A stretch of DNA of 64,000 nucleotides from an uncultured Actinomycetota bacterium. GTDB lineage: Bacteria; Actinomycetota; Thermoleophilia; RBG-16-64-13. How positions within the stretch are numbered: position 1 is the stretch's first letter; each line of letters begins with the position of its first letter. Positions 33,895 to 56,642 of this stretch are shown here, in pieces. The notes under the pieces were generated by a model. It was not told the origin of the DNA, ran no database searches, and saw only the letters and a list, made by a program, of their open reading frames with translations. The position numbers were made by a program, and so were the translations under genes. The stretch spans positions 194,834 through 258,833 of the forward strand of contig CAVZSN010000006.1 of NCBI GenBank assembly GCA_963777945.1, read 5' to 3'.

Positions 33895-34079
33895 GATATC
33901 CCCCCAGCTGCGACAGTGGCTGTGGTCCGGCGACGGCTACGAGAGTCATCGCTCGGATCGCTGTGTTTCCCATGCTACGGAACGGCACACCGTTCTGTGG
34001 CGACCTGCACACGATAGCACCCGATCTCGAGCGATGGCAACCGTCAGGCGGCTGCAAAGCAGCCGCGGCCGCAAAAGGA

Positions 34080-34103
34080 GGGGCCGCCCCGAAGGGCGGC
34101 CCC
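34080..34103 (-). terminator. intrinsic terminator after the liv-type operon
   Basis: ggggccgccc-cgaa-gggcggcccc is a perfect 10-bp stem. On the minus strand it is followed by tccttttgc. It lies about 50 nt downstream of the livM-like stop. Confidence 0.6.
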
Positions 34104-34151
34104 GGTTGGTCTGAGCTTCGCGCGGTGTCGCGCGAAATCACGAACTCATCG

Positions 34152-35238
34152 CTAGGCTTCCGCCTTCGCGGCGACCTCCTGGGGGGGCTCCTGCCCCGAG
34201 ACCGCAGCCAGCCTCAACTTGCGTTGGAGCGGGAACACGAAGAAGTTGGTCTTCCTTACGATGAACCCGTAGATGCCGGCCGGGCTCCAGACCGTCACGA
34301 CGATGGCCAGGAGACCCAGCACGATGAAGTACCACGTCGCCGTACTTGCTGGTCGTCTCTCGCAGGATGAAGTAGATGATGGTCCCGATGATCGGGCCCT
34401 TCGATCGTGCCGATGCCGCCGATGACCGTGATGAAGATCAGATAGGCGGTCCAGTTGACGCTGAAGGCCGCCGCCGGCTGCACCCGGAGGAGGTGGATGG
34501 CCACGATGGCGCCGACCAGCGCGCAGCCTGCGCCGGCGATGACGTAGGTGTAGAGCTTGGATGCGCCAGAGGTTGACGCCGCTACTCTCGGCCGCCAGGT
34601 CGTTGTCGCGCATGGCCTTCGAGACGCCAGACCGGTGCGGGACCGGAGCAGGAGGTAGGTGAACCGCGATGGCGATGAGGGCCGAGCCCAGGGCCCACCA
34701 GTACGCTGCCCGGCACCCGCACCTCGGTGCCCAACTTGGCTGGCCGCCTGGATCGTGATACCGGATCCACCGCCGGTTCTCTTGATGTTGGCCACGATCA
34801 GGCGAAGGATCTCCGCGATGACCCAGGTCCCGATGGCCAGATAGCCACCCTTGAGCCTGAACACCAGAGCCGCGGCCGGCAGGGCGATGATCGCACCGCC
34901 GATGGCCGCGAAGATCACCGCCGATGAAGGGGTTGATGTGCAAGACGTCGGAAAAGAGCCACAGGGTGTACGACGCCGATGCCGATGAAGCCCTGCTGCC
35001 CCACCGAGATGAGGCCGGCGTAGCCGAGCATGAGGTTCCAGAACTGGGCCAGCGCCAGCAGGGAGAAGAAGTCGACCAGCCGCCGGGTCCACGGCGTGCC
35101 CGCCGAAGAACGGGAACAGCGCGAGCACGATGAGCGATCAGCGACCCGAAAGCAAGGATCATGAGGTTGGTCCGGTTGGCCACCGAGACCGGAGTAGCTG
35201 CTTGCCGTCCCGGTGGCCGTGGTTGCAGTCGTTTTCAT
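34152..35238 (-). pseudogene. livM: branched-chain-type ABC transporter permease (LivM family), about 12 frame changes
   Basis: Recognisable permease segments alternate among all three minus frames. Examples: FFSLLALAQFWNLMLGYAGLISVGQQGF; AVIFAAIGGAIIALPAAALVFRLKGGYLAIGTWVIAEI; KLYTYVIAGAGCALVGAIVAIH; WYFIVLGLLAIVVTVW. They are found in ORFs 34152..35183, 34295..35128, 34915..35526, 34582..34770 and 34138..34335. Start ATG at 35238 overlaps the livH stop. Confidence 0.7.
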
Positions 35239-36111
35239 GCCGTCACCGTCTTCGCCAGGAAGCCCTGCGGTCTCAGGGCGAGGATGATGATGAAGACCAC
35301 GTGGCCCACGAGGATCTGCCACGCCGAGCCGAAGGCCTGGGCCCCGAGGGTCTGGGCCAGGCCCAGGATGACCCCGCCCAGCAGCGTGCCCCAAGCTGGA
35401 GCCCATGCCTCCGATGATGACCGCCTCGAACGCGAAGATGAGGCGGTCGCTACCGAGCAGCGGGTCGAACGTGGTGCGGATGCCCATCATCACGCCGCCG
35501 ATGGCTGACGATGAGCAGGGCCACACCCATGGCCACCGCCCAGATGTGCTTGGTGTTGATGCCCATCAGGCGAGCGGCTTCCTGGTCGTCGGACACCGCG
35601 CGGAAAGCCCGGCCCATCTTGGTGCGGCCCATGTACATCTGCAGGACGGTGATGACCACCACCGACATGATGAAGATGATCAGCGGCAGCCAGCCGACGG
35701 CCAGCCTGTCGTTGATGGTGATGCTCAGGTTCTCGACCTGGCCGGCGTCCAGACCCTGCGAGTTGGCGGTGAAGCCCTGCAGCAGGGCGTTCAGGATGAC
35801 GATCGAGATACCGAAGGTCACGATCACCCCGGCGACGTCCCCCTGACCTCACCACGAAGTTCAGCAGCCCGCGCTGCAGCAGATAGCCGAACGACGAACA
35901 TGATCACCATGGTGATCGGGATGGAATAGAACGGGTTGAACTGGAGGGCGTTGACGATCATGAGGGCCACGTAGGCCGGAAGGATGGTCAAGTCGCCGTG
36001 AGCGAGGTTGACCAGGCGCATGGTGCCGAACACGAGCGAGAGACCGACCGCGAACAGGGCGTAGAGGCCGCCCAGGAGGATGCCTTGAACAGCTGCGTTT
36101 ATCCAGTCCAT
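35235..36111 (-). pseudogene. livH: branched-chain-type ABC transporter permease (LivH family), about 4 frame changes
   Basis: The segments MDWINAAVQGILLGGLYALFAVGLSLVFG..., GYLLQRGLLNFVV, VIVTFGISIVILNALLQ...MGRAFRAVSDDQEAARLMGIN, AIGGVMMG...FEAVIIGGMGS and the tail ...ALRPQGFLAKTVTA lie in successive frames. Confidence 0.7.
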
Positions 36112-36113
36112 GT

Positions 36114-36814
36114 CTACACCCCGAAGTAGGCCGCGGTTATCTGGTCATTGGTCAGCTCGCTCGGGCCTCCCTGCAGGGCGATCCGCCCTTCGAGGAAGCA
36201 GGCCACGTGAGTGGCCACGGTGAGCACGTGCTGCACGTCCTGCTCCACCACGAGGATGGTGCAGCCGTTCTCGAGCAGGGTGGGGAAGGCCTCGTAGATG
36301 CGCTTGATGACCACCGGCGCCAGACCCAGGGAGACCTCGTCCATGAGGATGAGCCGGGGATTGGCCATGAGCGCGCGGCCGATCGCCAGCGCCTGCTGCT
36401 CGCCGCCGGAGAGACCGGAGGCCTGCCGCTTCTTGAGGGGCTGCAGCAGCGGGAACAGCTCGTAGACGGCGTCGGTGGTCCAGGGGCCCTTGCGGTTCCG
36501 ATAGGCGCCGATGAGGAGGTTCTCGTGCACCGTGAGACTGGGGAACACCCGGCGGCCTTCGGGCACAGAAGAGATGCCCATCTCCACCCGCTTGTAGGGG
36601 GGCATGTGGTCGATCGGGCTGACCGTCGAACAGGATGCGCCCGCGGCGAGGAACGAGGACTCCCGGCCACCGTCTTGAGCATGGTGCTCTTGCCGGCGCC
36701 GTTGGCGCCGATGCAGGCGAAGATCTCGCCCTCTTCGATCTTGATGTTGATGTCGTAGAGCGCCTGGAAGTCCTCGTAGTAGACGCTGGTGTTCTCGATC
36801 TCGAGCAGGCTCAT
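36114..36814 (-). pseudogene. livF: ABC transporter ATP-binding protein (LivF family), about 2 frame changes
   Basis: Walker A GANGAGKST is in ORF 36152..36814. The signature LSGGEQQALAIGRAL and Walker B LILMDE are in ORF 36114..36605. A short bridging segment (GVLVPRRGRILFDGQP) is in the third frame. Confidence 0.75.
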
Positions 36815-37538
36815 GCCGGCGTCCCTCCCATGTAGCAGGCCTGGACTTCCTGGCTGTTCATGACCTCGCGCGGGTCACCCTCGCACAGCTTGCGGCCGAA
36901 CTGGATGACCATGATGCGGTCGACCACGGCCAGCAGTGCGTGCACGATGTGCTCGATCCAGACGATGGTGATGCCGGTCTCGCGGAGCTTCTTGATCTCT
37001 TCGATGAAGATCCTCGACCTCGGCCTCGGTGAGGCCACCGGCGATCTCGTCCAGGAGCAGCAGCTTCGGGTCGGTGGCCAGAGCCCGAGCGAGTTCCAGA
37101 CGCTTGCGGTCGAGGAGCGTGAGCGACCCGGCCAGGACGTTCGCCTTCTGGTCCAGGCCGGTGATCTCGAGGATCTCCACGCAATGCTCGTACGAGGCCC
37201 GCTCCCCCATGTTCCGGCCGTGGGTGGCGCCCACCAGAACGTTCTCGAACACGGTCATGCCCGAGAAGGGCTTGGGTATCTGGAAGGTGCGGCCGATGCC
37301 CTGGCGGCACCGCTCGTGTCTGGAGAGGTGGGTGATGTCCTTGCCTTCGAAGATCACCTTGCCGGCATCGGCGTGCACCGCGCCGGTGATGAGGTTGAAC
37401 CAGGTGGTCTTGCCCGCCCCGTTGGGACCGACGATGCCCGAGCGCCTCGCCTTCGTCGACGCTGATGCTCAGATCGTCGATGACCAAGACCCCTCCGAAC
37501 GACTTTCGAAGGCCTTGGGTTTCAAGAGCTACCGTCAA
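36811..37538 (-). pseudogene. livG: ABC transporter ATP-binding protein (LivG family), 2 frame changes
   Basis: MTVALETQGLRKSFGG... / IVGPNGAGKTTWFNLITG...LLLLDEIAGGL / ...IFIEEIKKLRETGITIVWIEHIVHAL are split over ORFs 36858..37538, 36875..37378 and 36811..37038. One extra c is seen at about 37436. Confidence 0.75.
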
Positions 37539-37769
37539 GTGGAACCACCTCCGTGCATCATCCCAGTCCCCCTTCCTTCCCTGTGTGTAGTTTTACCTCG
37601 CAGGGCCCAGCCCGGAATGGTCCCAGCATGCAGCAACTCAGGATGTCACACAGGACGCCCCCAGGTCAAGGAAAAACCGCTTCAATAGCTCGCAAAACGC
37701 CCCTATGCACTGCAAGAGAGCGGCTGCCGCGCGGTAACCCGCGCGGCAGCCGGCCAACAGAGTCCGCGA

Positions 37770-39259
37770 CTACGAGCGAGACTCCTCTAGACGTAGCTCT
37801 TGCACCTTGTCCTGCACCGGGATGCCAAGGTCCGGGCAGCCGCCGTGCTGACGATGGTGAGTTCGAACGGATACTTGGTTCCCGTCCGCCACTGACCGCC
37901 GACGAGCGGAGTCTTGTAGACGTTCTCCACGATGTGGCACGGGCCCACCTGGAACGGCGGGGTCGCGCCTACGACCGGAGCGGTGAAGTCGATCGGCCCA
38001 CCGATGGTGTCGAGCTTCGTGCGTCTTGACAGCCGCGATGATGGCTTCCTTGTCGTCCACGCTGGTCGCCCGCTTGAGGGCGTCCACCGCCATCTCGAAG
38101 ACGATGAAGTGGAGCAGGGGCTGAGTCCACTGGGCGCCGTCGTTGGCGGCGGTGAACTTGTCGGCGAACTGCTGGCAGGTCTCACCCAACAGCGACGAGG
38201 TGAACGGGTGGCTGGGAGTCCACCAGACCTCGGTGGTGAGGTCGTTGGCAATATCGCCCAGCGCTTCCACCGACTGCGGGAATAGCAGGGCCTTGGCGTA
38301 GGTGGCCAGCTTGGGCTTCCACCCCTGCTGGATGGCCTGCTTCCAGAAGTTGGTGAAATCCGGCGGGATGAAGACGCCCATGCCGATCTCGGCAGCCGGC
38401 CTTCTTGAACTCGGAGATCTGGACGGTGAAGTCCTCGGTGCCCGACCTGGTACTGGCTGGGGACCACGGCAGTGAGCCCTGCCGGCTGATAGACGGGTTC
38501 CCAGCCGGGTAGCCAGGCGTTGCCGTCGGCGTCGTTCGGGAACATTGCGCCCACGACTTTGTTGTTGGGCACCTGGCTCCACATGTCGAGGAACGTCGCT
38601 TGGACGTCCTCGAGACCCCAGAACGTGTGATAGGTCCACTTGAAGACGGCGTTCAGGTCGCCGGCGCTGCGCCCGCCCACGTATGGCTGCCACGGGCAGT
38701 CGTTGGTGACACAGGGCGTTCCGCCCGCCTCGGCCTGGTCGGCCACCGGGTTCACGGTGTCGGGAGTGGAAGCCGCTGTGACGATGTCGACCTTGTCGTT
38801 GTTGATGAGGTCGCCCGTCACCTGGGCGGCGCGGGCCCCGTCGGACTGGCTGTCCTTGGTGATGATGGTGACCGGGTGCTTCAGGCCGTCACCGCAGACG
38901 ATGCCATCGCCGATAGCTTCCTGCGCTCTTTCGACGCAGTACTTATCCGGCACGCCGAAGGAGGCCAGACCACCGGTCTGGGGGGTCACGAAGCCGATCT
39001 TGACTTCGCGCCCCACTTCGGCGCCGGCGCTCACCGTGGTGGTAGAACCGGCTGCCGCCGTCGTGGTGGTAGCGCCAGCTGCCGTGGTAGTGGTGGCGCC
39101 CGCTGCGGTGGTAGTGGTCTCCTCGGCCTCGCCGCAGGCGGCGAGCACACCGCTCAGACCGGCGCCGACACCGATGGTCGCGCCGGCGACACCCGCTACC
39201 TTGAGAAACTGCCGGCGGCTTACGCCGGATCCGAGCGTACGTTCTTCCTTGTCAGACAT
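37770..39259 (-). pseudogene. ABC transporter substrate-binding lipoprotein (Leu/Ile/Val-binding-protein fold) with Tat signal, about 4 frame changes
   Basis: The N-terminus has SRRQFLK, lipobox LAAC and a TTTTAAGA-repeat linker. The first ~275 aa are in ORF 37787..39259. The remainder alternates with ORF 37770..38693 (GMGVFIPPDFTNFWKQAIQQGWKPKLATYAKALLFPQ...). The exact C-terminal end (37770 or 37787) is unresolved. Confidence 0.75.
39029..39118 (-). repeat. coding Thr/Ala linker repeat (TTTTAAGA x3)
   Basis: Read from the translation TTTTAAGATTTTAAGATTTTAAAGSTTT. The DNA shows the matching ~24-nt periodic repeat. Confidence 0.7.
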
Positions 39260-44448: not shown

Positions 44449-45285
44449 CTAGAGCGACGTCCTGTCGGCAATCGAGGTACTGCGAAAGTAGGCGGTCATT
44501 TCCGCGGCCTTATTCTTGACGGCATCCGCATTCCTCCCGCGGGCCTCCGCACCGAAACGGTCTGACGGGGCCACCACGGTCAGCACAGCGAGCACGTCGC
44601 CGCCGGGTCCGAAGACCGGGGCCGAGACCGCGCAGACGCCCACGTCCTGCTCTTCCAGGTCGAACGCCACTCCCTCGCCGGCGGCCCGGTCGAGCATCGC
44701 CGCCAGCTCCGCCGGGTCGGTGGTCGTGTGAGGTGTGAACTTGAGTTGCGGCTCACGTAGCAGCCGCGCCTTCTCTTCGTCGGGCCTCGTCGCCACCCAC
44801 ATCCGGACGGCGGAGTTGGCCATGTTCGCGAGGATCCGACCGGTCGGCAGGTTGGGCTTGAACGGGTGGGAGGTGGCCACTTGATCGACGACCACGGCGC
44901 CCTGAGCGCTCTCCACCGTCAACTCGACCGTCTCCCCGGTGGCCTTCGCGAGATCCTCCAGGAACGGATGGGTGTAGCGGACGAAGCTGACATAGGAGAG
45001 GGCCAAGTAGGCCCCGGGGATCATGGCCCTGCCGAGGTGATAGCGTTCGGTATCGGGGTCGAAGGCCACGAACTCCTTCCACTCGAGGGTGCGGAGCACC
45101 CGGTAGGCCGTGGTCTTCGATATGCCGGTCCGTCGGCAGATCTCGTCGAGGCTCCACTCCGGGTGTTCCACATCGAAGAGCGCGAGGATGGAGAGCCCGC
45201 GAGCGAGCGCCTGCACATAAAGGTCGCTCTCCTCCTCCGAGCGCCCCGCCAGGGACGCGCGCGGCCGTCCTCCCGCCCTAGCCAT
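44449..45285 (-). CDS. IclR-family transcriptional regulator embedded in the molybdoenzyme cluster
   Basis: ORF 44449..45339. Start taken at the ATG at 45285 (MARAGGRPRASL...). wHTH ALARGLSILALFDVEHPEWSLDEICRRTGISKTTAYRVLRTL plus an IclR effector domain. Confidence 0.85.
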   Translation of the reverse strand: MARAGGRPRASLAGRSEEESDLYVQALARGLSILALFDVEHPEWSLDEICRRTGISKTTAYRVLRTLEWKEFVAFDPDTERYHLGRAMIPGAYLALSYVSFVRYTHPFLEDLAKATGETVELTVESAQGAVVVDQVATSHPFKPNLPTGRILANMANSAVRMWVATRPDEEKARLLREPQLKFTPHTTTDPAELAAMLDRAAGEGVAFDLEEQDVGVCAVSAPVFGPGGDVLAVLTVVAPSDRFGAEARGRNADAVKNKAAEMTAYFRSTSIADRTSL

Positions 45286-47900
45286 CCACCTTCTCCATCG
45301 AGTACGCCCGCGATGCACGGACCCGCGTCGGCGTGGCACTCCCGCTCGAACGCCTCCGGATAGCGACGGCGAAGGCCTTCCAGGTCGATCTTCTCCACCT
45401 CGGCCAGAAAACCGGACACCACCATCCCCACAGCGTTTTTGGAGGTCGTGTTCCGCGGCACGATGGTGTTGATGGCACCACCACGGTCAATCTCCCCTGG
45501 GACCACGGGATCGTACTTGGCCCCGTGGTCGATACCTACCACACCGGGCATGATGCGCTCGGTCAGATAGGCGCCGGCCAGTACCGTCCCGCGTTCGTTG
45601 AAGATGCTGACCACATCGCCGTGCATGACCCCCCGCGCCCGGGCGTCGGCAGGATTGATCCACAGCGGGTGGTAGTGGTATCCATCGGCGCCCCTCACCT
45701 TGCAGGTCTCGATCTCGCGGAACCAGGTGACATCGTCATGCTGGGAGTGGACTCCCCATCTGGGGTGGTTGCTCATCACGAGCAGCGGATACTTCTTGCT
45801 TCGCTCCGTACCTAGGGTTTCCGCATGAGTCGAGCCTTGCGCGATCCACTTCGGCACCGGTCCCCGTTCGTCGTCGCCGGGGAAATGCTCGGCCAGACCG
45901 GTAGCGTAGAATTCGAGCTTGCCGGTGGGGGTGGTGAGCGGATGTCCCTCCGGATCTTCGTAGAACTCGATCATCCCGGCCGGGATCCTGTCCCAGTCGG
46001 GATCGGGCGAGACCACGTAGTAGCCCTTCTCGTTCAACTCTTCCCAGCTGATCAGATGAGCGGCCCCCGAGCGTTCGTACCCAGCGCGGATCAGTTCCGA
46101 TACCGTCTTCCCGCCGGTATATGCCTCAAGCAGCCCTAGACGGTCGGCAATCTTGCAGACGATCTCGTAGTCGCTGAACGACTCACCCAGAGGCTCCACA
46201 CAGCGCGTCTCCGGAAACAGCAGGTTCATCTGCCCGCCGAACACATCGTTGGCGATATCGTCCTCCTCGAGCTTGGTGTTGACCGGCAGGAGGACGTCGG
46301 CAAAGAGGGCATCATTCTCCAGCCACGGGTGCTGGCAGAAAATGAACTCTATCGAATCGTCCCGCATGGCCTGGATGAAGTGGTTCCCTTCGTTCCAGCA
46401 CGTGATCCAGGAAGGGGAATCGGTCCAGATCATGTGGATGCGAGAGGCGCCTTCGACCGGATACTGGTAGTGGACGAACTGGTTCTCCCGGGGGGCGAAC
46501 TCCTCCTCCGCACCCCACCAGTCGACCGAACCCTCCAGAATGGCTCTCGGCACCAGGCTCTTGGGAACGAAGTTCGGATGAGTGTCGCCCGGCGTGCCTC
46601 CTGTGTAGCCAGCAAGCACGCTCGTGAACACCGAGGGCGCAGGAGGGGACATCTGCTCGTAATCGTGGTGCAGACCCCACTCGATCATCTTGGACTGATT
46701 GCATCCTGGCTTCCCGAGGCCCTGCATCGCTAGGCACAAGACCTGCAGCCGAGCAGGCTCCGTGGAGTACGGGCCGCGGATGCCCGGGCCGCCGTTGCCG
46801 ATGACGACCGTGGTCCGTTTCGACGCCCATTCGGCGGCGAGGGCCTTGATGATGCGGGCTGGGACTCCGGTGATCGGCTCGGCCCACTCCGGGCTCTTCG
46901 GCACACCGTCCTCCCGCCCCATCACGTAGGCCTCGAACATGTCGACGCCGTAGGCGTGAGTCTCGAGATACGCCTCGTCGTACGTGCCGTCCTTGAACCA
47001 CTGGTAGGTGATGGCTAGGTAGAGCGCGGCATCGGTGTTGGGCAGTACGGGGATCCACTTGTCGGCGTGGACAGCATTGGCGTAGTTGCAGTCGGGCGCT
47101 ATGTAGATCTGCCTGATGCCGAGCTCCGTCCACCAGAAGCTCAGCCGGCTGGGAAGTTGCCCTCCCCAACCCCAGGTGGTGGTCTCCTGGTCACAGCCCC
47201 AGAACAAGAGAAGTTCCGCGTTCCTGGAGATGTCGAGAAGTAGGTTCTTCTGCGGCATCTGCTGACCCACCGGTTCGCAGCCCCACACGTGCTTGGCGCC
47301 CCACCACCAGCCTTCCCAGCTATCGGGCTGGCGCGCCTGGAGTGTGTACCCGCCGAACAGACGCAAGAGCTTGCGCCCGCACCCGTGCGGACCGTGGACC
47401 ACCTTGTTCTCACCGTGCTGGTCCGACTGATACAGGATGGCCTCCGGTCCGTATCGCTCCTTCATCCGCAGCATCTCGCTGGTGACGATGTCGAGCGCCT
47501 CGTCCCAGGAGATGCGCACGTACTTGCTCACCCCACGGTTCTGGATGTTGCGCCCACCCGGACCGGCGGAGCCGGGCGCGCCCGCCGGGTCGAAGTCCAC
47601 CCGCTTCATCGGGAACCGGATGCGGGCGGGTGAGTACACGCGCTTCTTGTACGCCAAACTGATGGGTCCGATGAGGCTCTTGTCGCTTGGCTCGAAGGTC
47701 TTGCCCCGAGCGTGCATCACCCAGGGCTTCACTTCCTCCCGGGTGTACCGCTCGTAGTACCGGGCCGGACGGATGCGGATGATCTTCCCGTCCTTGACGT
47801 CCACCATGGCCGCGTTCGCCCCTGCCCCCACGCCGCACCAGCTGAGGTCGCGGACGATGGTCCGCTCTCCCTGTGTCGCGCGTTCGTTGCTCTCCCGCAT
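45021..47900 (-). CDS. transhydroxylase-like molybdoenzyme alpha subunit (alpha2), no adjacent beta; ORF lacks a stop at the expected end (~45291)
   Basis: Start at the ATG at 47900, after GAGGGGG. Collinear with alpha1 at roughly 70% identity by eye, as far as ...YPEAFERECHADAGPCIAGVLDGE. The last ~90 codons are Arg-rich and run out of frame through the IclR gene, so they are probably not real protein. Confidence 0.8.
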   Translation of the reverse strand: MRESNERATQGERTIVRDLSWCGVGAGANAAMVDVKDGKIIRIRPARYYERYTREEVKPWVMHARGKTFEPSDKSLIGPISLAYKKRVYSPARIRFPMKRVDFDPAGAPGSAGPGGRNIQNRGVSKYVRISWDEALDIVTSEMLRMKERYGPEAILYQSDQHGENKVVHGPHGCGRKLLRLFGGYTLQARQPDSWEGWWWGAKHVWGCEPVGQQMPQKNLLLDISRNAELLLFWGCDQETTTWGWGGQLPSRLSFWWTELGIRQIYIAPDCNYANAVHADKWIPVLPNTDAALYLAITYQWFKDGTYDEAYLETHAYGVDMFEAYVMGREDGVPKSPEWAEPITGVPARIIKALAAEWASKRTTVVIGNGGPGIRGPYSTEPARLQVLCLAMQGLGKPGCNQSKMIEWGLHHDYEQMSPPAPSVFTSVLAGYTGGTPGDTHPNFVPKSLVPRAILEGSVDWWGAEEEFAPRENQFVHYQYPVEGASRIHMIWTDSPSWITCWNEGNHFIQAMRDDSIEFIFCQHPWLENDALFADVLLPVNTKLEEDDIANDVFGGQMNLLFPETRCVEPLGESFSDYEIVCKIADRLGLLEAYTGGKTVSELIRAGYERSGAAHLISWEELNEKGYYVVSPDPDWDRIPAGMIEFYEDPEGHPLTTPTGKLEFYATGLAEHFPGDDERGPVPKWIAQGSTHAETLGTERSKKYPLLVMSNHPRWGVHSQHDDVTWFREIETCKVRGADGYHYHPLWINPADARARGVMHGDVVSIFNERGTVLAGAYLTERIMPGVVGIDHGAKYDPVVPGEIDRGGAINTIVPRNTTSKNAVGMVVSGFLAEVEKIDLEGLRRRYPEAFERECHADAGPCIAGVLDGEGGWLGREDGRARPWRGARRRRATFMCRRSLAGSPSSRSSMWNTRSGASTRSADGPAYRRPRPTGCSAPSSGRSSWPSTPIPNAITSAGP

Positions 47901-48055
47901 GTCGCCCCCTCGGGAGAGCTCGCAGGCCGGCCGGCGGTCACCGACGCCGCCGCCCACCAGCATAACTCCCCCCGGCCCGCGGGCGTGCCCCTTATTGCGA
48001 GCGCGGCTGTCAGAGGACGGGCTGTGGCAGACCGCTACCCGCGAGCGAAAAGAAA

Positions 48056-48079
48056 GGGGCCCGTCGCATGACGGGCCCC
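48056..48079 (-). terminator. intrinsic terminator between beta3 and alpha2
   Basis: On the minus strand, ggggcccgtc-atgc-gacgggcccc (10-bp stem) is followed by tttcttttcg. It lies about 35 nt after the beta3 stop. Confidence 0.7.
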
Positions 48080-48112
48080 GATCGTCAGACTACGTCGTTT
48101 GCGTCGGGCCGG

Positions 48113-48951
48113 CTACGCCCTATCGAGCATCACGAGACCCAGGTTGAGGCTCTCGTCGAGCGTAACGGTCCTGGACACGGCCTTGTAGCCCTCGGCCGCG
48201 ATGGTCACGTCGTAGCTCTTGCCGGGCTCGAGATGGTCGACTACGAACTCGCCGTAGTTGTTGACCATACCTTCGCCGACGACGGCGCCTGCAGCAGAGA
48301 CGGTGACTTTCGCGCCCTCGGCACACTCATCGGTGTCCTTGAAGGCGACGCTGCCGAAGCGAACACCTTGGTCCACCGGTGCAGGTTCTTGTACCAGACG
48401 CGGGGCTTGGCGCCCAGTTCGGGCCTGAGGACTTCCAGGCCGTCTGCCGCGACCAGACCGGCCATCTCGGCGTCGTCGGTAAGAACCAACTTGATCGCCT
48501 CGGTGGGACACACCATGCTGCACCGGGTCTCGGTCCATCCGGCGTCGAGCAGATGCGCACATCCGGTGCACTTCTGCGCCAGTTGCAGCTCTTCATTCCA
48601 GTAGATGACCTCGTACGGGCAGGTCTTGACGATCTCCGGATGTCCCTTGGCCTTCTCCGGATCGATGATGACGAGACCGTCTTCGCGCTTGTACACCGTG
48701 CCCGCGGGCGAATCCTTGATGCAGGGGGCGTCATCGCATTGCAGACAGGGGGTGGGCCGGAACACCGGCTGGACGATGGGGTGCTGGCCCCGCTCTTTGC
48801 GTTCGATGTTCATCCAGCGATGCCCCGTCCACGGCTGAGCCAGGGAGTAGGGCGGGAAGTCGTTACCGACGAACTCGTCCTTGTCGGAGAGGAAGCAGTC
48901 GTTGCAGTCGTGGCAACGAGCCAGGTCGATCACCATGTTCCACTTCTTCAT
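48113..48951 (-). CDS. 4Fe-4S beta subunit (beta3), one frame change
   Basis: Start at the ATG at 48951, overlapping the alpha3 stop (ATGA). Cys motifs CHDCNDCFLS, CLQCDDAPCI, CPYEVIYWN and CTGCAHLL...CSMVCP. The C-terminal Ig-like domain (ECAEGAKVTVS...YGEFVVDHLEPGKSYDVTIAAEGY) is in ORF 48113..48571. The shift is near 48366-48375. Confidence 0.8.
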
Positions 48952-51543
48952 TTGGCCTTGCCCTCCCATTTCTCCACCTGGATGAGGCACGAGTTGTTGG
49001 CCATTGAGGTAGAAGTCGGTGTGATGTAGCGTTTGGGTGCGAGAATATTGACACATCCCGAGGTATCCGGGGAGTAGCCGGGCTCACCCAGCGGCAGGTA
49101 GTCCGCGCACGATTCGTAGGAGTGCACCGTCCCGGCGGGCACGCGCTCGCTGATGGCGGCGGCCAGAATGACCGACCCCCGATCGTTGTAAGCCTGGATC
49201 AGGTCGTGGTGCTTGATGCCGCGCGCTTCGGCGTCTTTGGTGTTGATGCGCATGACCCAGTACTTGTGGCCGTCGATCAGAACGCGGTGGTCCTTGACGT
49301 CGTTGAGCCAGCTCTCCTTGGAGTCACCCATGGTGTGGAAGCTGAACCGCGGGTGCGGCGACACCATCTGCAGCGGGTAGGTGCTGTAGCTCGGCGTCCG
49401 GTGGCCTTCCCAAGAGGGGATGTATTGGGGGCCCATGACCGGCCGTTCGGGATCGATGTTGCCGCCCTCCTCGAACCGCCTCAGGCTGCTCGACACGAAC
49501 TCGATCTTGCCTGTGGGGTCTGCAGGCCCTTCGAGCGCGACGGTGTCGGCAGGGTGCGGACCCCAGTCGGGAGTGTCCTTCTCCCGGCCCTCCGCGAACC
49601 AGCGCATGGCCGGGGTGGACTTGTGGTCTTTCGGGAAGGGGACGACGACGTAGCCCTTCTTCTCGAACTCCTCCCAGGTGGTGATCTTGGGGAGGTCGGT
49701 GGCGTAGAAGTATTCCTTCACCCACTGCAGCTCGTCCTTGCCACCCATGGTGAAGATCGGCCCGATGCCCAGCCGCTCCGCGAACATGCGGAAGATCTCG
49801 TAGTCGGATTTCGACTCACCCAGCGGCTCGATGCACTTCTTCTGCAGCACGATCATACGGTGATTCACCTGTGCGCCCGTATGCGGGATGTAGCCCGAGC
49901 AGTTGGCGAACTCGCTGATGTCCCAGCGCTCGAAGTTGGTGCAGGCGGGAAGGATGATGTCGGCGAAGCGGGCCTCACCCTCGAACCAGATGCACTGGTT
50001 GACGACCATTCCGATCTTGCCTTCCCGGTACGCCCGGACGTAGCGGTTGGTCTCGGTCATGGTGCCGATGAAGGAGGTGCCGTACTTCCAGTACATCTGC
50101 ACGTGCGGGTAGCCGGGGGCCGGATACTCGTACTTCTGAAATTGTGACTCGATCGAGGAGCCGCAGAAGCCCTTGCCGTGCCAGCGCACCTTCTCGTGCA
50201 TCATGGCTTCGGGGATATTGATCCTGGGAATGGTCTGCCCCTCGGTGGAGTGGTGGGCAGTCCGGGTCGCGCCCCGCTTGTTCGCGAACATGCGGTACAC
50301 GAACTCGTATCCGGCGGCCGAGTTGTCGACGTCACCGGAGATGCCACCCTCGGCGTAGCCGGGGAAGAAGAACGACTCGTCGCTGGGAGCTCCCTGCGAG
50401 GTGCCCCAGATGTTGCTGCCCGGCTTGCCGTAGCCCTGCATGGCGGCGAGAGCGATCATGACCCGGGCCCACTCGTTGCCGGTGGCGGAACGGCAGGCAC
50501 CGCCCCAACCGCCAAGACCTCCAGCGGCCAGCATGGTCTTCTTGCTGCCCCATTCGCGAGCCAGAGCCCGGATCTCGCGCGCCGGGATCCCACACTCGGT
50601 CTCGGCCCACTCGGCGGACTTGGCCACGCCGTCGGTCTTGCCGAGCACGTAGTCTTTCCACTCGTCGAAGCCGTGGGTGCGAGCAGCCACGTATTCCTTG
50701 TCGTAGAGGTCCTCGGTCAGCCAGGTGTGCGCGACACCAAGACCGAACGCCACATCGGTGCCGAGCCGAGGCGAGAACCACTTGTCGGCGAACAGGGTCG
50801 CCGTCGGATTGTAGTAGGGATCGACGAACACCATCTTGATCCCGAGTTCCTTGCATCCAGAAACGGCGTGGTGTGCTCTCGAAAGCGGAGTAGATGCCGC
50901 CGCCGGTGGTCTCCGGGTCGGATGACCAGAAGACGACCATCTCGGTGTGCTTGAGAGCGTCTTCCAGGAGGTCGTACTGTTCGGGGATGCCGAGGCGGTG
51001 GCTGTTGCCCCACATGTGGATCCCGCCCCAGTGCCAACCTTCCCAGCTGTCGGGGTTGTGTTCACCGTAGGTGAAACCGACGAGGTTCATGAAGCGGAAA
51101 TAGGTGCTGTGCCGGTAGCCCACGTTCCCCCACAGGTGGTGCGAACCAGGGGTGGACAGGATCGCGGCGGGGCCGACTTCCCTCTTGAGCCGGATGATCT
51201 CGTCGCACACGATGTCGAGCGCCTCGTCCCAGCTGATCGGCTCGTACCCGGAAACGCCGCGGTTCTGGATGTTACGCTCGCCCTTGGGATCGAAGTCCAC
51301 CCTCTTCAGAGGCGTGAGAACGCGCTTGGGCGAATAGACCATGGACCTCTGCGCCACCGCGTGCGGGGACAGGGTCGTCCGGCGTTTGGGCTTGAATGTT
51401 CGACCCCGAGCTTGGATGGTCCAACCTTCGGGATCACTCTCTTGCAGGTCGATGGGGAACATGCGGATGATCTTGCCGTCCTCCACATCCACGAAGAGTG
51501 GCCCCCCGGTCGTTCCATTTGTGAATCTCTCGACTTTTCCCAT
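48948..51543 (-). CDS. transhydroxylase-like molybdoenzyme alpha subunit (alpha3, more divergent), one frame change
   Basis: N-terminus from ORF 50332..51543 (MGKVERFTNGTTGGPLFVDVEDGKIIRMFP...PDSWEGWHWGG) and the rest from ORF 48948..51065, joined near 50853. About 865 aa. No Tat signal and no N-terminal Cys cluster. Confidence 0.8.
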
Positions 51544-51831: not shown

Positions 51832-52820
51832 CTACTTCAGCGGGTAGATGTCGTAGCGTTCCTTCTCGGCGGCCGGGCCGTAACCGGTACCGCAGTAGGT
51901 GTAGGTACGATCCGGAACGCCCTTGTTGACCTGATCTTCGTCGATCTCGGCCACGCAGCGGACCATCGAGCCGTCGCCCATGTACCAGCGGATCGGGAAG
52001 CAGTAGAACCGGAAGCGCTTGCCGGCCACCTTGTCCAGGTCTCCGCCGAGGTTCTCAACGCCGACGATGCCATGACCCAGCATCTGCTTGTGGCAGGGTT
52101 CCCACGTTCCCCATTCGCCGAGCGCTTCGAGCTCGCCGTATCTGGCGTCGTAGGCCTCCTTGCCGTGCAGCTTGATGTAGAGCTCGCGGTCGAATTCGGC
52201 ATAGGCCTCTTCACCGAACTGCTCGGCGTATTCTTCAGTGATCGTCCTGCCGGATTTGCCGAGCAGGTTCATCCGCGGCGGCCCGTTGTTGCCCATGGCC
52301 GTGTGAAGCGGATGGTCAAGCGCCTGCGAATCCATGGCAACGCACTTGGGCCCGTACTTGACGAACCATTTGCCGGCTTCGAGACCGGTACCGCATGCGT
52401 AGTGGTAGTAGTCCTTGGAGTCGTCGAACAGGCGATGCATGCCGGTGTTGAGGCACACGACCATGCCCTTGAGTTCGGTCGGTTTGATGTTCGCCCGCTC
52501 GCAGGCGTCTTCGAGATGCGGCGGGCACGGATCAGGCCCCACTGGTGGATCTTGATCTCGAGGCAGACCGCGTCGCCCGTGTAGGCGTCAACGGGCATCT
52601 CGTGGGTGTAGCGAGCCCTTTTGCCGTTGAATTCCCGCTCCATGACGTGACGGGGGGCGTCGGCGTGGGTGCCGGTGTGCTGGACACAGTCGACCCTCTG
52701 CGTGAGGACGCCGCCCTTGGCCATGGTGTGCATCGAATCGATGACCGGTTTCACGAAATACGGCCAGCGAGGGATCTCTGCACTAAATGGATGTGTCAGA
52801 TCGACCCATACTTTCCCCAT
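51832..52820 (-). CDS. cyclase-family (kynurenine formamidase / isatin hydrolase fold) metal hydrolase; candidate dihydrophloroglucinol cyclohydrolase; one frame change
   Basis: N-terminus from ORF 52269..52820 (MGKVWVDLTHPFSAEIPRWP...HTGTHADAPRH, the cyclase-family His motif). C-terminus from ORF 51832..52542. The shift is at the C4 run 52537-52540. Confidence 0.75.
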
Positions 52821-52926
52821 AGTCCCTACTCATCTCCTTTGCTCGTTGCCTTATGACTGACGGGCGCACGATGCGTCCGATCTGTCCTCTATTTGCACCG
52901 GCGGTCTGCCGGTGTCTCCCATTCTC

Positions 52927-53892
52927 CTAGCTGCCGGCCTCCGCCTCGTTCATCTCGCGCACTGCCTTGGTCAAGTAGCCGAGCAGACGGCTGCGAAGCG
53001 CTTTCTGCTCCTCGGGCGTCCAGGTCTGGTAACCGACGCCGCCCGTCTTGAAGCCCAGTTCGTTCTTGGCCACCTTCTCCTTGAGGAGCGGCGAAGGCTC
53101 GTGCGAGTCCTCCAGGTATTTGAGCACGTAGTTGTGTATGGACAGCGTGAGGTCGAGCCCGACCATGTCGGCGTTCTCGCACGGAGCGAGCACCGGCAGG
53201 CGCAGCCCTGGCCCGTACTTGAGGCTCTCGTCCACGGTCTTGGGATCAGCGATGCCCCGCTCGACGATGGACAGAGCCTCTCGCCACAAGGCGTGCTGCA
53301 GCCGGTTGGCGATGAAGCCCGGGACGTCCTTCTTGCAGTGCACCGGCCGCTTGCCGATGGCCTTGTGCAGCTCCATGGTGACATCGATGACCCAGGCCGG
53401 CGTCTCTTCGGTCTGGACCACCTCGACCAACGGGATGAGGAACGGCGGGTTCCACCAGTGAGTCCCGATTATCCTGTCGCGCTTCTGGGACTTGCTGCCG
53501 ATCTCCGTCGGGCTCATCACCGAGGTGTTGGTCGCCAGGATGGCGTCCGGCTTACACATCTGATCGAGCTTCTGGAAGGTGTCCTGCTTGAGGCCCATAT
53601 CCTCGGCCACGCATTCGAGCACGAAATCCGCGTCGGCCGCAGCCTCCGCCATGTCCTGGGTGGTGCTGACCCGGGCCATGGTAGGCTCGACGTCTTCCAG
53701 CGTGCCCAGGCCGCGCTCGGCCAGGAACGTCAGGTCGCTCCGCATCGCCTCGATGCCCTTCTCCAAGGTCTCCGCTCTGCGGCTGTACATGCCGACCGGA
53801 TAGCCGGCAGCCGCGAAGACCATGGCGCAGCCGTGCCCCATGCTGCCACCACCGACGATCGCGATCTTCTTGACGTCCTCCAGTTTCATCAT
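52927..53892 (-). CDS. 3-hydroxyacyl-CoA dehydrogenase-family NAD-dependent dehydrogenase (carnitine / gulonate 3-dehydrogenase-like); candidate 3-hydroxy-5-oxohexanoate dehydrogenase
   Basis: 321 aa, intact. Rossmann IAIVGGGSMGHG, and the family core NTSVMSPTEIG...HWWNPPFLIPLVEVV. Confidence 0.8.
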   Translation of the reverse strand: MMKLEDVKKIAIVGGGSMGHGCAMVFAAAGYPVGMYSRRAETLEKGIEAMRSDLTFLAERGLGTLEDVEPTMARVSTTQDMAEAAADADFVLECVAEDMGLKQDTFQKLDQMCKPDAILATNTSVMSPTEIGSKSQKRDRIIGTHWWNPPFLIPLVEVVQTEETPAWVIDVTMELHKAIGKRPVHCKKDVPGFIANRLQHALWREALSIVERGIADPKTVDESLKYGPGLRLPVLAPCENADMVGLDLTLSIHNYVLKYLEDSHEPSPLLKEKVAKNELGFKTGGVGYQTWTPEEQKALRSRLLGYLTKAVREMNEAEAGS

Positions 53893-54695
53893 CCGGCCAC
53901 CGCCCCGCCGTCCACAGAGAGGATGAGGCCGGTCACGTAGTCAGACGCCGGAGAGGAGAGGTAGACGCAGGCGCCGATGAAGTCGTCCAGTTCGGCGGCC
54001 CGGCCCATGGGGATGCGTGCCATGAAGATCTTGACCATCTCCGGGTTGTCGCGGACCTGCTGGGTGAGCGGAGTCCAGAAGATGGAGGGGGCGATGGCGT
54101 TGACGTTGATCCTGTACTTGGCCCACTCGGTCGCCAGCTGTTTGGTGAGCAGGTGGACGGCCCCCTTGGAGGTGCCATAGGCCGCATATCCGCCGGGATG
54201 GCCGAGGAACCCGCGCACTGAACCGATGGTGATGACCTTGCCGCCGTCGCCCTGCTTGATGTATTCGGCGCCGGCATACTTCGCGCACAGCAGAGTGCCA
54301 CGGACGTTGACGTTCATGACCTTCTGCCACTCTTCGATGTCGAACGTCTCAGCGGGCTGGCGGTTGCCGGCGGTGCCGGCCACCGTGACCATGATGTTGA
54401 CCTTGCCGAAGTCCTTGACCACGCCCTCCATGGCGGCCTTGACACTGTCGTCCGAGGTCACGTCGACGGCGGAGGCGGTGGCGTTCTTGCCCAGGCCTTT
54501 GATGTCGGCCACTACATCGTCCATGATGTCGGTCTTGATGTCCCAGCACGCCACGTCGGCACCGAAGACCGCGAGTCCTTTGGCAAGCGCATGACCCAGG
54601 GTGCCGCCCGCGCCGGTCACTACCGCCACCTTGCCGGAGAGATCGAAGATCTTCCTGAGTTCCTCGACCGACTTTCTTGGTGTTTCTTCAGCCAT
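53889..54695 (-). CDS. short-chain dehydrogenase/reductase; candidate phloroglucinol reductase
   Basis: 268 aa, intact. TGAGGTLG cofactor motif and YGTSK catalytic motif. 4-nt overlap with the downstream gene. Confidence 0.85.
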   Translation of the reverse strand: MAEETPRKSVEELRKIFDLSGKVAVVTGAGGTLGHALAKGLAVFGADVACWDIKTDIMDDVVADIKGLGKNATASAVDVTSDDSVKAAMEGVVKDFGKVNIMVTVAGTAGNRQPAETFDIEEWQKVMNVNVRGTLLCAKYAGAEYIKQGDGGKVITIGSVRGFLGHPGGYAAYGTSKGAVHLLTKQLATEWAKYRINVNAIAPSIFWTPLTQQVRDNPEMVKIFMARIPMGRAAELDDFIGACVYLSSPASDYVTGLILSVDGGAVAG

Positions 54696-54738
54696 TCCCT
54701 TACCTCCCGATCAGCTTTGTCGTCTTCGCTCCGCCGGC

Positions 54739-55089
54739 CTAGGCTTCCTTGGGCATGCCCAGGATCACCATCATGCTCGCCGGGTACTGGGTCTTGTTCT
54801 TTATCGAACGGCCTTCGTCACCGGCGATGAAGATGGAGTCGTGAGCCTCAAGGACTATGTCTTTGCCATCTTTGTCGGTGATGGTGATCTCGCCGTCGAT
54901 GCAGAGATAGATAGTGTCGAACGGCCTTCCTGGGCTGAAATCGGCTCCGCCACCCGGCAGGAAGTGCGTGCAGCCCAGAGAGAACTGGGTGGTCCCCGTC
55001 TCTTCCTTGCCCTGCAGCCTGAAGCAGGCGCAGTCATTGTGCGCGGGAGGGAAATACCGCACTGCGTCACTGATCGAAACCTTCTTCAT
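54739..55089 (-). CDS. cupin-domain protein
   Basis: 116 aa. Small beta-barrel-type sequence (FLPGGGADFSPG...YLCIDGEITITDKDGKDIVLEAHDSIFIAGDE). Function unknown. Confidence 0.6.
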   Translation of the reverse strand: MKKVSISDAVRYFPPAHNDCACFRLQGKEETGTTQFSLGCTHFLPGGGADFSPGRPFDTIYLCIDGEITITDKDGKDIVLEAHDSIFIAGDEGRSIKNKTQYPASMMVILGMPKEA

Positions 55090-55098
55090 TCCTCACTC

Positions 55099-56034
55099 CT
55101 ACATCCGGCGACCATGGTCGCATTGCCGGCCACAGAGCCCGTTCTGACCACTCCGGCGAACGCGCTCGCTCTTTCGGCCGGGCTGACGCCCGACCGGACG
55201 ATGCCTTACTTCTTGGGAGAGCAGGCCCAGGATCTGCCGGGCCTCGGCCGGGCTGGCGACCGGACGACCGAACTCCTTGGCCAGACGCTGCACCTTCTCG
55301 ACGAACTCGAAGTTGTGCTGCGCGAGCACACCCTTGCTCAGGTAGACGTTGTCTTCCATGCCCACCCGCACATGGCCGCCCATGTTGATGGCCATGGCCA
55401 TGATGAGGTTAGCCGTGGGGCCGCAGCCGAACGCCGACCAAGTCGATCCCTCCGGCAGCGAGTCCACCAGGTGGACCAGGTTGCGCGCCGAGCCTTCCAT
55501 CCCACCGTGCACATGCATGCAGCACTGCCAGTGGATGGGCGCCTTGAGGAACCCGTCGGCCAGGAGACGTTTGGCGTTCCACACCATGCCGGCATCGAAC
55601 ACTTCCACTTCGGGCTTGATGCCGTGTTCGATATAGGCCGCACCCAGCTTCTCCAGGAACAGCGGGCTGTTCTGGAAGACACCTTTGTAGAAGTTCATGG
55701 TGCCGGCATCGAAGGTGCCCATGTCGGGCTTGAGTATCGTGTGAGGGTGGATGCGCTCTTCGTCGCTGAAACCCAGACCGCCGGAGGAGGTCATGTTGAG
55801 GACGATATCGGGGCACTTCTCGCGGACCAGGCTGACGGTCTTCTCGAACCTGTCGACTGCCATGGTGGCCTTGCCCTCTTCGGTGCGTACGTGGATATGG
55901 GCAATAGCGGCCCCGGCCTGGTACGCGCCGTACACCTCCTCGGCGATCTCCTCGGGCTGAGTCGGCAGATGGGGCGTGTTCTCTTTGGTGGTCATCGCCC
56001 CGGTCGTCGCCACGGTGATGATGAGCTTCTCCAT
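55099..56034 (-). CDS. beta-keto acid cleavage enzyme (BKACE / DUF849 family); candidate triacetate acetoacetate-lyase
   Basis: Start at the ATG at 56034, after GGAGGTCGAAC (MEKLIITVATTGAMTTKENTPHLPTQPEEIA...AAIAHIHVR...HVRVGMEDN, BKACE TIM-barrel motifs). The last ~35 codons are Arg/Gly-rich. A PKK-stop in another frame near 55200 suggests the true end may be there. Confidence 0.8.
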   Translation of the reverse strand: MEKLIITVATTGAMTTKENTPHLPTQPEEIAEEVYGAYQAGAAIAHIHVRTEEGKATMAVDRFEKTVSLVREKCPDIVLNMTSSGGLGFSDEERIHPHTILKPDMGTFDAGTMNFYKGVFQNSPLFLEKLGAAYIEHGIKPEVEVFDAGMVWNAKRLLADGFLKAPIHWQCCMHVHGGMEGSARNLVHLVDSLPEGSTWSAFGCGPTANLIMAMAINMGGHVRVGMEDNVYLSKGVLAQHNFEFVEKVQRLAKEFGRPVASPAEARQILGLLSQEVRHRPVGRQPGRKSERVRRSGQNGLCGRQCDHGRRM

Positions 56035-56345: not shown

Positions 56346-56431
56346 GCCGAAGTGGCGGAATTGGCAGACGCGCTGGACTCAAACTCCAGTGAGGCTCACA
56401 CCTCGTGCGGGTTCGACCCCCGCCTTCGGCA
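56346..56431 (+). tRNA. tRNA-Leu (anticodon CAA)
   Basis: Folded by hand. Acceptor stem GCCGAAG/CTTCGGC; D arm GCG-GAATTGGCAGA-CGC; anticodon stem CTGGA/TCCAG with loop CTCAAAC. Long variable arm (TGAGGCTCACACCTC); T arm GCGGG-TTCGACC-CCCGC; discriminator A. 86 nt. CCA is not encoded. Confidence 0.9.
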
Positions 56432-56642
56432 CCTCCTGGAATTGCCACTGTCGTCGCTGCTTTCACCACTTGTATGGCTATGCAAAGGCGCTTGTCTCCA
56501 TGGCTGTGTCCGGACCGGCTTCCTTCGTGGATCATGTGAACCGTAACGGTGAAGGATTTCTGCCCCACAAAGCGAAAATCTGCGTTCGGAATAGAAAAGT
56601 TCCCATAGATTTCGTGCAGTGAGGCTGCTACACTTTTTGGAC

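Follow-up and report, generated by a model that had tools for sequence, protein, structure and literature searches.

The window analyzed in this work (64,000 nucleotides of contig CAVZSN010000006.1, assembly GCA_963777945.1, from an uncultured Thermoleophilia-type actinobacterium) contains at positions 51832-56034 five head-to-tail genes on the minus strand, which encode, in this order, a member of the BKACE family, a small cupin, a short-chain dehydrogenase/reductase (SDR), a member of the 3-hydroxyacyl-CoA-dehydrogenase family and a cyclase-family protein. We propose, with a probability of about 85%, that this module encodes the anaerobic phloroglucinol pathway of the type that proceeds via (S)-3-hydroxy-5-oxohexanoate dehydrogenase (TfD) and triacetate acetoacetate-lyase (TAL). 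The basis for the assignment is the family membership of the gene products, the close homology of the dihydrophloroglucinol cyclohydrolase (DPGC), TfD and TAL, the presence of diagnostic residues, and conserved synteny; all catalytic activities, and the substrate of the SDR above all, are predictions. The pathway itself is already known and has already been reported to be widespread, also in Actinomycetia. In Clostridium scatologenes it comprises phloroglucinol reductase (PGR), which is an SDR, DPGC, which is a Mn-dependent member of the cyclase family, TfD, which belongs to the 3-hydroxyacyl-CoA-dehydrogenase family and acts on a free acid, and TAL, which is a BKACE enzyme, and these four enzymes reconstitute the pathway in vitro without a cupin (Zhou et al. 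2023, mBio, PMC10470551). A preliminary description of this stretch had named the same four families (with TfD abbreviated as HOHD) and had read the module as the anaerobic phloroglucinol pathway; the families it gave agree with the pathway paper, and its reading is supported by the homology of DPGC, TfD and TAL, the diagnostic residues and the synteny described below.

In the proposed scheme, phloroglucinol would be reduced by the SDR to dihydrophloroglucinol, the ring of which would be opened by the Mn-dependent DPGC through retro-Claisen hydrolysis to yield (S)-3-hydroxy-5-oxohexanoate; this free acid would be oxidized by TfD to 3,5-dioxohexanoate (triacetate), from which TAL would move an acetoacetyl unit onto acetyl-CoA, producing acetoacetyl-CoA and acetoacetate. 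Three transhydroxylase-like molybdoenzymes, encoded directly downstream, most likely feed phloroglucinol into the pathway from pyrogallol or other trihydroxybenzenes, and IclR regulators together with an ABC transporter would complete a catabolic island beside a tRNA-Leu gene. The physical joining of the pathway to three transhydroxylase paralogues would make the island a complete funnel from trihydroxybenzenes to acetyl-CoA. Phloroglucinol is a hub for the oxygen-free mineralization of flavonoids and tannins in guts, peat and sediments, and the window extends the known pathway to uncultured soil actinobacteria of the Thermoleophilia type. To what is known it adds a conserved and expressed cupin, a reductase from a divergent clade (termed clade B below), a predicted inversion of the cofactor usage, and the coupling to the three transhydroxylase paralogues.

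Predicted cyclohydrolase, dehydrogenase and lyase

The SDR, DPGC, TfD and TAL genes are co-located on the minus strand within 4.2 kb and are separated by intergenic gaps of -4 to ~120 nt, with the start of TfD overlapping the stop of the SDR by 4 nt. The tight packing and the position had been given correctly in the preliminary description, and the families it named are borne out by Pfam; the same holds for the two motifs it reported in the cyclase (HTGTHADAPRH) and in the SDR (YxxxK, here YGTSK). It had missed two defects of the reading frames: the cyclase gene is split and the BKACE gene has lost its stop codon (see below). The NCBIfam database contains no model that would name any of the four pathway enzymes, and scans for promoters and terminators returned nothing above the shuffled expectation.

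The DPGC gene (51832..52820, minus strand; Pfam Cyclase) is frame-broken at ~52519-52529, and its product was compared with the characterized DPGC of C. scatologenes (CsDPGC) after stitching of the frames; the reference sequences of CsDPGC and of the TfD from the same organism (CsTfD) were taken from the supplement of PMC10470551. The window protein is 83% identical to CsDPGC, retains the metal ligands as well as the substrate-contacting residues Trp20 and Tyr22, and exhibits the motifs PRWPY, QHTGTHADAPRH and HGIVGVEN. The Trp/Tyr pair sets DPGC apart from isatin hydrolase. We assign the window cyclase as a DPGC, and it is predicted to catalyze the Mn-dependent cleavage of dihydrophloroglucinol. 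As a side observation, the conservation of DPGC is extraordinary, with 82-84% amino acid identity between this actinobacterium and Firmicutes, while the neighboring TfD, TAL and SDR are just 31-57% identical between those same genomes.

The TfD candidate (52927..53892, minus strand; Pfam 3HCDH_N and 3HCDH) is 49% identical to CsTfD and has kept the catalytic Ser, His and Asn residues. Two positions that contact CoA in the true hydroxybutyryl-CoA dehydrogenases, Lys56 and Asn221, are replaced by Leu and Gly, respectively, as in CsTfD. The preliminary description had assigned this protein to the type that acts on free 3-hydroxy acids.

The BKACE-family protein (55099..56034, minus strand; Pfam BKACE, E-value 1.6e-101; true stop predicted near 55211) finds its best PDB match in Kce (2y7d, 227 bits), with which its TIM-barrel aligns over the full length at 41% identity, and it scores 321 bits with the NCBIfam Kce equivalog model, i.e. 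below the cut-off of 382. It is more similar (48-54% identity) to the BKACE proteins linked to clostridial clusters, with proteins of C. intestinale and Clostridium sp. OS1-26 standing in for the related CsTAL sequence, and in a neighbor-joining (NJ) distance tree it appears as the sister of the clostridial cluster-linked TAL clade. The Glu14 residue, with which Kce binds the 5-amino group of its substrate, is replaced by Met in the window protein and by Trp in the clostridial TALs (Trp16 of CsTAL). We consider the BKACE protein a TAL candidate. Its interpretation as a Kce of lysine fermentation is ruled out by the missing Glu14 and by the context of phloroglucinol degradation.

The gene cluster of C. 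scatologenes (PGR CSCA_1082, DPGC CSCA_1083, TfD, TAL; PMC10470551) contains the same four families and shares with the window the core order cupin-SDR-TfD-DPGC, including a cupin gene directly upstream of the reductase gene, and the diagnostic residues of TfD and DPGC are alike in both. However, TAL is encoded upstream of the cupin in the window and after DPGC in Clostridium; the window module has no adjoining thiolase or CtfAB genes and is accompanied instead by three transhydroxylase-like molybdoenzymes; and its host is represented by a high-GC actinobacterial metagenome-assembled genome (MAG), with an SDR that comes from a sister clade and carries an NAD-type motif. A different continuation of the pathway has been described for Collinsella sp. 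zg1085, where, in the account of Li et al. 2024 (AEM) as cited in PMC13039779, an aldolase splits 3-hydroxy-5-oxohexanoate into acetone and malonate semialdehyde. As far as that account goes, the first two steps (PGR and DPGC) are common to both systems, while the window has TfD and BKACE and no aldolase. Because the island lacks an aldolase, the module is assigned to the TfD/TAL route and not to the Collinsella route.

The divergent reductase

The SDR (53889..54695, minus strand; Pfam adh_short, motifs and profile analysis) is the positional equivalent of PGR. It possesses the catalytic Ser-Tyr-Lys triad (GSVRG...YGTSK), and its glycine-rich motif, previously described as TGxxxGxG, actually reads TGAGGTLG, that is TGxxGxxG. 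Its closest public proteins are 90-95% identical to it. In the PDB, it matches KduD and gluconate dehydrogenases best. The identity is 34% to 5g4k and ~36-39% to close relatives of CsPGR. The entries 5g4k and 5g4l (Clostridium sp. ATCC BAA-442), which we take to be PGR structures although the molecule name in the PDB is generic, reportedly originate from the 2016 work of Conradt et al. While similarity to the characterized enzymes beyond the superfamily level is clear for DPGC, TfD and BKACE, the SDR is the weak point in this respect.

DPGC relatives are encoded in 448 genomes; the best 80 loci (L001-L080) were compared, and the cluster-associated SDRs were taken from them. KduD, Gno, 4ibo and 4g81 were used as outgroups. 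The cluster SDRs form two clades that occupy the same slot in the operon: clade A, which is similar to 5g4k (54-85% identity for members from Firmicutes, 43-49% for those from Desulfobacterota), and clade B, which includes the window protein and its relatives (33-38% identity to 5g4k). Five deviations are common to both clades, namely TGxxGxxG, VT-AG instead of NNAG, S-x-R following the catalytic Ser, GYxxY, and P-x-x-F-[RW]; all of them are present in the window protein and in every cluster-linked SDR and absent from the four outgroup structures. This signature was derived in the present analysis and is not a published definition. Compared with 5g4k directly, the window protein is likewise a classical SDR that shares the Ser-Tyr-Lys triad, TGxxGxxG, the loss of NNAG, S-x-R, GYxxY and P-x-x-F-[RW], but differs at the cofactor-discriminating position, with W-D-I instead of the T-G-R of PGR. 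With the profile hidden Markov model (HMM) of clade A, the window SDR reaches 258 bits and the outgroups 185-203 bits, a margin of about 55 bits; the reverse HMM separates 5g4k poorly. In the NJ tree all cluster SDRs are monophyletic with respect to the four outgroups, and the window protein is found in the sister clade B. Finally, three clade-B homologues picked without reference to DPGC were all found in cupin-SDR-cyclase-HADH-BKACE clusters. Given its slot, its PGR motifs, the HMM score, the monophyly and the cluster context of clade B, we regard the window SDR as the probable reductase of the pathway. Annotation pipelines label clade-B reductases as "gluconate 5-dehydrogenase" and the associated cupins as "galactosidase" or generic cupins, with the consequence that surveys based on similarity to PGR under-count the pathway.

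At the end of strand beta-2, the window SDR and 19 close relatives exhibit W-D-[IM]-K, whereas every other cluster SDR exhibits T/S-G/S-R. Classical SDRs that prefer NAD(H) are characterized by an Asp residue in this place, and T/S-G/S-R is the NADP-type sequence; the basic residue that follows beta-2 in an NADPH-type site is absent from the window protein, which has W-D-I-K for T-G-R. The opposite change is seen in TfD: most TfDs have Asp at the corresponding place, while the subclade of the window TfD exhibits Y-S-R-[RK] (Y-S-R-R in the window), which is of the NADP type. If the motifs have their usual meaning, the window lineage would reduce phloroglucinol with NADH and regenerate NADPH, i.e. 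the reverse of C. scatologenes, and with an NADH-type reductase and an NADP-type TfD the pathway would double as an NADH-to-NADPH transhydrogenation. Three sister MAGs (L009, L027, L031) pair an NAD-type SDR with an NAD-type TfD.

The grouping of the five genes was also seen outside the window. The core genes co-occur in most of the 80 DPGC-anchored loci, and in loci found independently, starting from the cupin and from the SDR, so that the grouping goes far beyond chance.

The cupin

The fifth gene (54739..55089, minus strand) encodes a 116-residue single-domain cupin, homologous to Rv1717 of Mycobacterium tuberculosis and to CSCA_1081 of C. scatologenes. The preliminary description had called it an unexplained member of the module, which is accurate and holds for the whole family. 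Its Pfam Cupin_2 score of 26.5 bits is just below the gathering score of 27.2, and the fold is confirmed by the AlphaFold model (pLDDT 90.5) and by Foldseek (TM-score ~0.82 to single-domain cupins). The search of PDB sequences with the cupin alone returned marginal matches only (best E-value 0.013), and the profile search and Foldseek identified generic cupin neighbors, with no functional transfer. The structural neighbors TM1459 (a Mn cupin from Thermotoga), DddK (a DMSP lyase) and RemF (a polyketide cyclase) share the single-domain barrel (TM-score ~0.82), but they are only 16-21% identical to the window protein and their His metal ligands are not conserved: the positions of His52, His54 and His58 of TM1459 are occupied by variable residues other than His in the cupin family, and the C-terminal His ligand of both TM1459 (His92) and DddK falls on the invariant Arg94 in the alignment. 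The invariant residues of the family are Tyr12, His17, Tyr61, Glu67, Ser85, Glu92, Arg94 and Asn98.

The family, small and specific, amounts to ~291 clusters at 50% identity (E-value <= 1e-10) among 1.84 billion representatives. The cupin is encoded in 47 of the 80 DPGC loci, or, put differently, in 47 of the 63 loci that contain at least two other core genes (~3/4), and these are distributed over Actinomycetota, Firmicutes (C. intestinale, Tissierella, Alkalibaculum, Sinanaerobacter, Lachnospiraceae) and Desulfobacterota. Two of the three cupin-anchored loci (L081, L084) contain the full module, and the third is cut by a contig end. The search for domain fusions ("Rosetta stone") revealed only bicupins and a form anchored by SLH domains, which are uninformative.

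The cupin matches the NCBIfam model NF050094 (the Rv1717 model, named "beta-D-galactosidase") over the full length with an E-value of 1.7e-23, but its 83 bits are below the equivalog cut-off of 175 bits, which makes it a homologue and not an equivalog of Rv1717. The latter belongs to Rv1714-Rv1718, a predicted five-gene operon of M. tuberculosis (PMC2724278), and Zhou et al. place a DPGC homologue from M. tuberculosis in a phloroglucinol degradation cluster (PMC10470551). Like the window module, Rv1714-Rv1718 consists of five genes in an actinobacterial host, and the two were matched through the Rv1717 model; unlike the window host, mycobacteria are aerobic, and Rv1717 has been published as a beta-galactosidase. 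The products of Rv1714-Rv1718 are presumably an SDR, FadB3, a cyclase, a cupin and a DUF849 protein; of these, Rv1717 is described as a cupin in its own paper. The hydrolysis of p-nitrophenyl (pNP) beta-galactoside by Rv1717 is the only functional claim for the cupin family (PMC7873859). CSCA_1081, the gene of which adjoins those of PGR (CSCA_1082) and DPGC (CSCA_1083), appears with 3 peptides and 10 peptide-spectrum matches in the mass spectrometry table for a gel band from phloroglucinol-grown cells, although the protein is unmentioned in the paper (PMC10470551). Our literature search returned no paper that would link a cupin to phloroglucinol reductase, dihydrophloroglucinol or the pathway.

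The cupin is a conserved accessory member of the module and not an obligatory fifth step, because the pathway runs in vitro with the four enzymes alone and its gene is missing from some of the complete clusters. The intermediates of the pathway include the enolate of a cyclic beta-diketone and an unstable beta-keto, delta-keto acid, and metal-free cupins such as RmlC handle enolates with a His/Tyr acid-base set and an Arg residue. We speculate that the cupin could work by acid-base chemistry without a metal: it would bind an anionic beta-dicarbonyl intermediate (the dihydrophloroglucinol enolate or triacetate) and tautomerize, isomerize or shield it by means of His17, Tyr12/Tyr61, Glu67/Glu92 and Arg94. 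That it specifically tautomerizes, isomerizes or protects dihydrophloroglucinol or triacetate we consider possible but doubtful. Our broader proposal, tentative and in our judgment somewhat short of even odds, is that the cupin is an unrecognized fifth functional component that acts on or protects a beta-dicarbonyl compound and that, as a separate matter, the cofactor logic in this subclade is inverted with respect to Clostridium. The cupin offers a cheap and testable lead, which could reveal a missing accessory function and prompt the re-annotation of the M. tuberculosis gene.

Alternative explanations

Several observations weigh against the scheme presented above. The SDR is only 33-38% identical to the characterized PGRs, it is matched best by sugar-acid dehydrogenases in the PDB and in NCBIfam, and we know of no assayed member of clade B; moreover, the Asp residue that closes beta-2 speaks against the NADPH dependence by which EC 1.3.1.57 is defined. 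As read, DPGC is encoded by a pseudogene and TAL has an aberrant tail. The cupin adjoins the SDR in 32 loci and TAL in 31, so that adjacency does not pick its step; about one quarter of the complete clusters, including those of the close relatives L010 and L021, are devoid of it; and the reconstitution of the pathway works without it (PMC10470551), so that it may do nothing for the flux.

The cupin could be a non-catalytic protein, namely a small ligand-binder with a sensing or buffering function for phloroglucinol or an intermediate, for instance together with an IclR regulator. It has no canonical catalytic metal site, some clusters and the in vitro pathway (PMC10470551) do without it, and IclR regulators accompany many of the clusters. 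On the other hand, the invariant polar set (His17, Glu67, Glu92, Arg94, Asn98) is typical of an active site, the gene is located inside the enzyme operon and not beside the regulator, and no DNA-binding partner domain or fusion was found for the cupin family; we regard a purely ligand-binding role as unlikely.

The frame disruptions raise the question whether the locus is a decaying, non-functional remnant, in which the frameshifts would be real mutations of a genome that is losing this catabolism. We mapped the breaks against intact orthologues from eight related MAGs. In the cyclase gene, Pfam positions 1-80 are encoded in the open reading frame (ORF) 52269-52820 and positions 78-142 in another frame, in the ORF 51832-52542; the break lies between the codons of ...WGLI and HLED... 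(~52519-52529), where the window has 11 nt and six relatives have 9 nt, i.e. an insertion of 2 nt. In the BKACE gene, one extra base at ~55213, four codons before the stop, causes the TAA codon to be missed and adds ~37 spurious codons (comparison with L012 and L005). In total, at least 15 frame switches were found between 34000 and 61400 (at approximately 61100, 60300, 55213, 52524, 50851, 48352, 42538, 41220, 37437, 37007, 36640, 35890, 35848, 35505 and 35399), and they affect also trpC, the gene of a universal stress protein, the ABC transporter and four of the five molybdoenzyme genes. The split DPGC gene, the lost TAL stop and the breaks in the transhydroxylase-like and transporter genes would be expected of a decaying island. 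However, housekeeping genes (trpC and the universal stress protein gene) are hit as well; the coding alignments contain no nonsense codons, with the few reported stops lying upstream of start codons; the amino acid identity on either side of every break remains at 80-95%; related MAGs (L002, L015, L017, L024) that belong to the same long-read MFD series are similarly fragmented; and indels alone, at about one event per 2 kb, are the typical mark of long-read consensus error. Owing to this indel-only pattern and its frequency, seen also in housekeeping genes, we conclude that the disruptions of DPGC and TAL are very probably assembly errors, and that gene decay is improbable. Programmed frameshifting in DPGC was ruled out, with all relatives in frame and indels throughout the window.

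A still less probable possibility is that the module acts on a different cyclic 1,3-dione or beta-keto acid and that the SDR reduces another phenol or a sugar acid. It agrees with the best structural and NCBIfam matches of the SDR (KduD, gluconate 5-dehydrogenase), with the public annotation of its homologues as "gluconate 5-dehydrogenase" and with the Met residue of BKACE at the position of the Trp of CsTAL. Yet DPGC is 83% identical to a characterized enzyme and has the same residues at the substrate contacts, so that another substrate is hardly to be expected; no reductase other than the SDR belongs to the conserved core, and the SDR displays the PGR-specific motifs; and homologues of the transhydroxylase that makes phloroglucinol adjoin the module.

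The idea that the cupin is a beta-D-galactosidase, as published for Rv1717, and that its place in the operon is incidental is in our view highly implausible: to our knowledge, a cupin of 116 residues such as this one has no feature of the known glycoside hydrolases, and genes of the family are linked to SDR-cyclase-HADH-BKACE clusters in strict anaerobes of several phyla. In its favor are the hydrolysis of pNP-beta-galactoside by Rv1717 and the 83-bit match of the window cupin to the NCBIfam equivalog model of that name, but this score is far under the 175-bit cut-off, and the Rv1717 assay used hour-long incubations and sub-micromolar protein and did not take the Rv1714-Rv1718 operon into account (PMC7873859). 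If the cupin is instead a functional component of phloroglucinol degradation, the beta-galactosidase assignment of Rv1717 and the NCBIfam name derived from it are wrong as to the physiological role. As an observation in its own right, the name of NF050094 rests on one paper, and the conserved operon context suggests that it misses the physiological role.

The surrounding catabolic island

The island in which the module is embedded extends to lower coordinates on the minus strand. It contains three transhydroxylase-like large subunits, namely paralogue 1 (48948..51543; frameshift at ~50851; family assigned by paralogue 2), paralogue 2 (45285..47963; intact; PDB 4v4c_A) and paralogue 3 (41661-44307; frameshift at 42538), as well as an Fe-S small subunit (48122..49056; frameshift at ~48352; PDB 4v4c_B) and the small subunit of paralogue 3 (40807-41664; frameshift at ~41220). 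The best PDB match of the intact large subunit is pyrogallol hydroxytransferase (4v4c_A, 432 bits, versus 238 for DMSO reductase), and that of the Fe-S small subunit is 4v4c_B from Pelobacter acidigallici (227 bits, the next match being 94). The P. acidigallici pyrogallol-phloroglucinol transhydroxylase (4v4c) is the best PDB match by a wide margin for both window subunits, but the window encodes three paralogous large and two small subunits, and the similarity is at the family level only. The large and small subunits are most similar to AthL and BthL. We classify the molybdoenzymes as probably pyrogallol-phloroglucinol-transhydroxylase-like. Their genes (40807-51543) are unidirectional, with an IclR gene between them, and no separate small subunit accompanies paralogue 2. 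Having several such enzymes is reminiscent of the multi-step transhydroxylations that have been proposed for hydroxyhydroquinone in Pelobacter massiliensis.

The IclR-family regulator (44449..45339, minus strand) matches the NCBIfam models PcaR/PcaU/PobR (128 bits) and BhcR (140 bits). The minus strand at 33073..39259 encodes another IclR regulator (33073-33894) and a heavily frameshifted ABC transporter that comprises a binding protein, two ATPases and permeases; IclR genes also flank related clusters. Between the transporter and the third transhydroxylase there are genes for a TatD-like metal hydrolase (39475-40275) and a RidA/L-PSP-family protein (40279-40806), both on the minus strand in the direction of the island and with no obvious role in trihydroxybenzene catabolism. 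Upstream of TAL, the island is bordered by tRNA-Leu(CAA) (56346..56433, plus strand), a junction that relatives have conserved. The closest MAGs (Actinomycetota, Thermoleophilia and Gaiellales; ~82-84% nucleotide identity) are syntenic through the whole island, the G+C content of which (0.62-0.645) is slightly under that of the flanks (0.65-0.69).

At a distance of 45 kb from the module, the window encodes a 697-residue ligase of the acetyl/acetoacetyl-CoA-synthetase type (ACAS_N and AMP-binding domains; 9593-11686), and a similar ligase is found directly after the cupin in a Dehalococcoidales contig (L083). Such a ligase could activate the acetoacetate released by TAL.

Variation among related loci

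In 11 of the 80 loci, DPGC was found without any other core gene within 10 kb, some of the contigs being short, and one MAG contains two copies of DPGC (L010, L014). In six Desulfobacterota loci without the cupin, a 110-residue protein with an ABM domain (antibiotic biosynthesis monooxygenase-like) is encoded directly upstream of DPGC (L029 6077-6406, L030 2504-2833, L032 9604-9933, L035 9606-9932, L036 9608-9937, L044 9606-9935); it may perhaps, on this thin indication, be a functional analogue of the cupin. Other lineages, including an Acidobacteria MAG, have cupin-SDR-cyclase-HADH-BKACE clusters with a shorter cyclase of 253-267 residues (L081 5181-5942, L085 6817-7620, L087 3204-4007), apparently devoid of the ~60-residue insert of DPGC; in L081, an AhtL-like molybdoenzyme and a UbiD-type decarboxylase adjoin the module. 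Finally, two loci from Desulfobacterota (L044 15049-15696, L046 9141-9815) encode a protein that weakly matches the DAPG/phloretin-hydrolase family, in L044 beside an MFS transporter, which points to an upstream feed of the phloretin type, unlike the transhydroxylases of the window.

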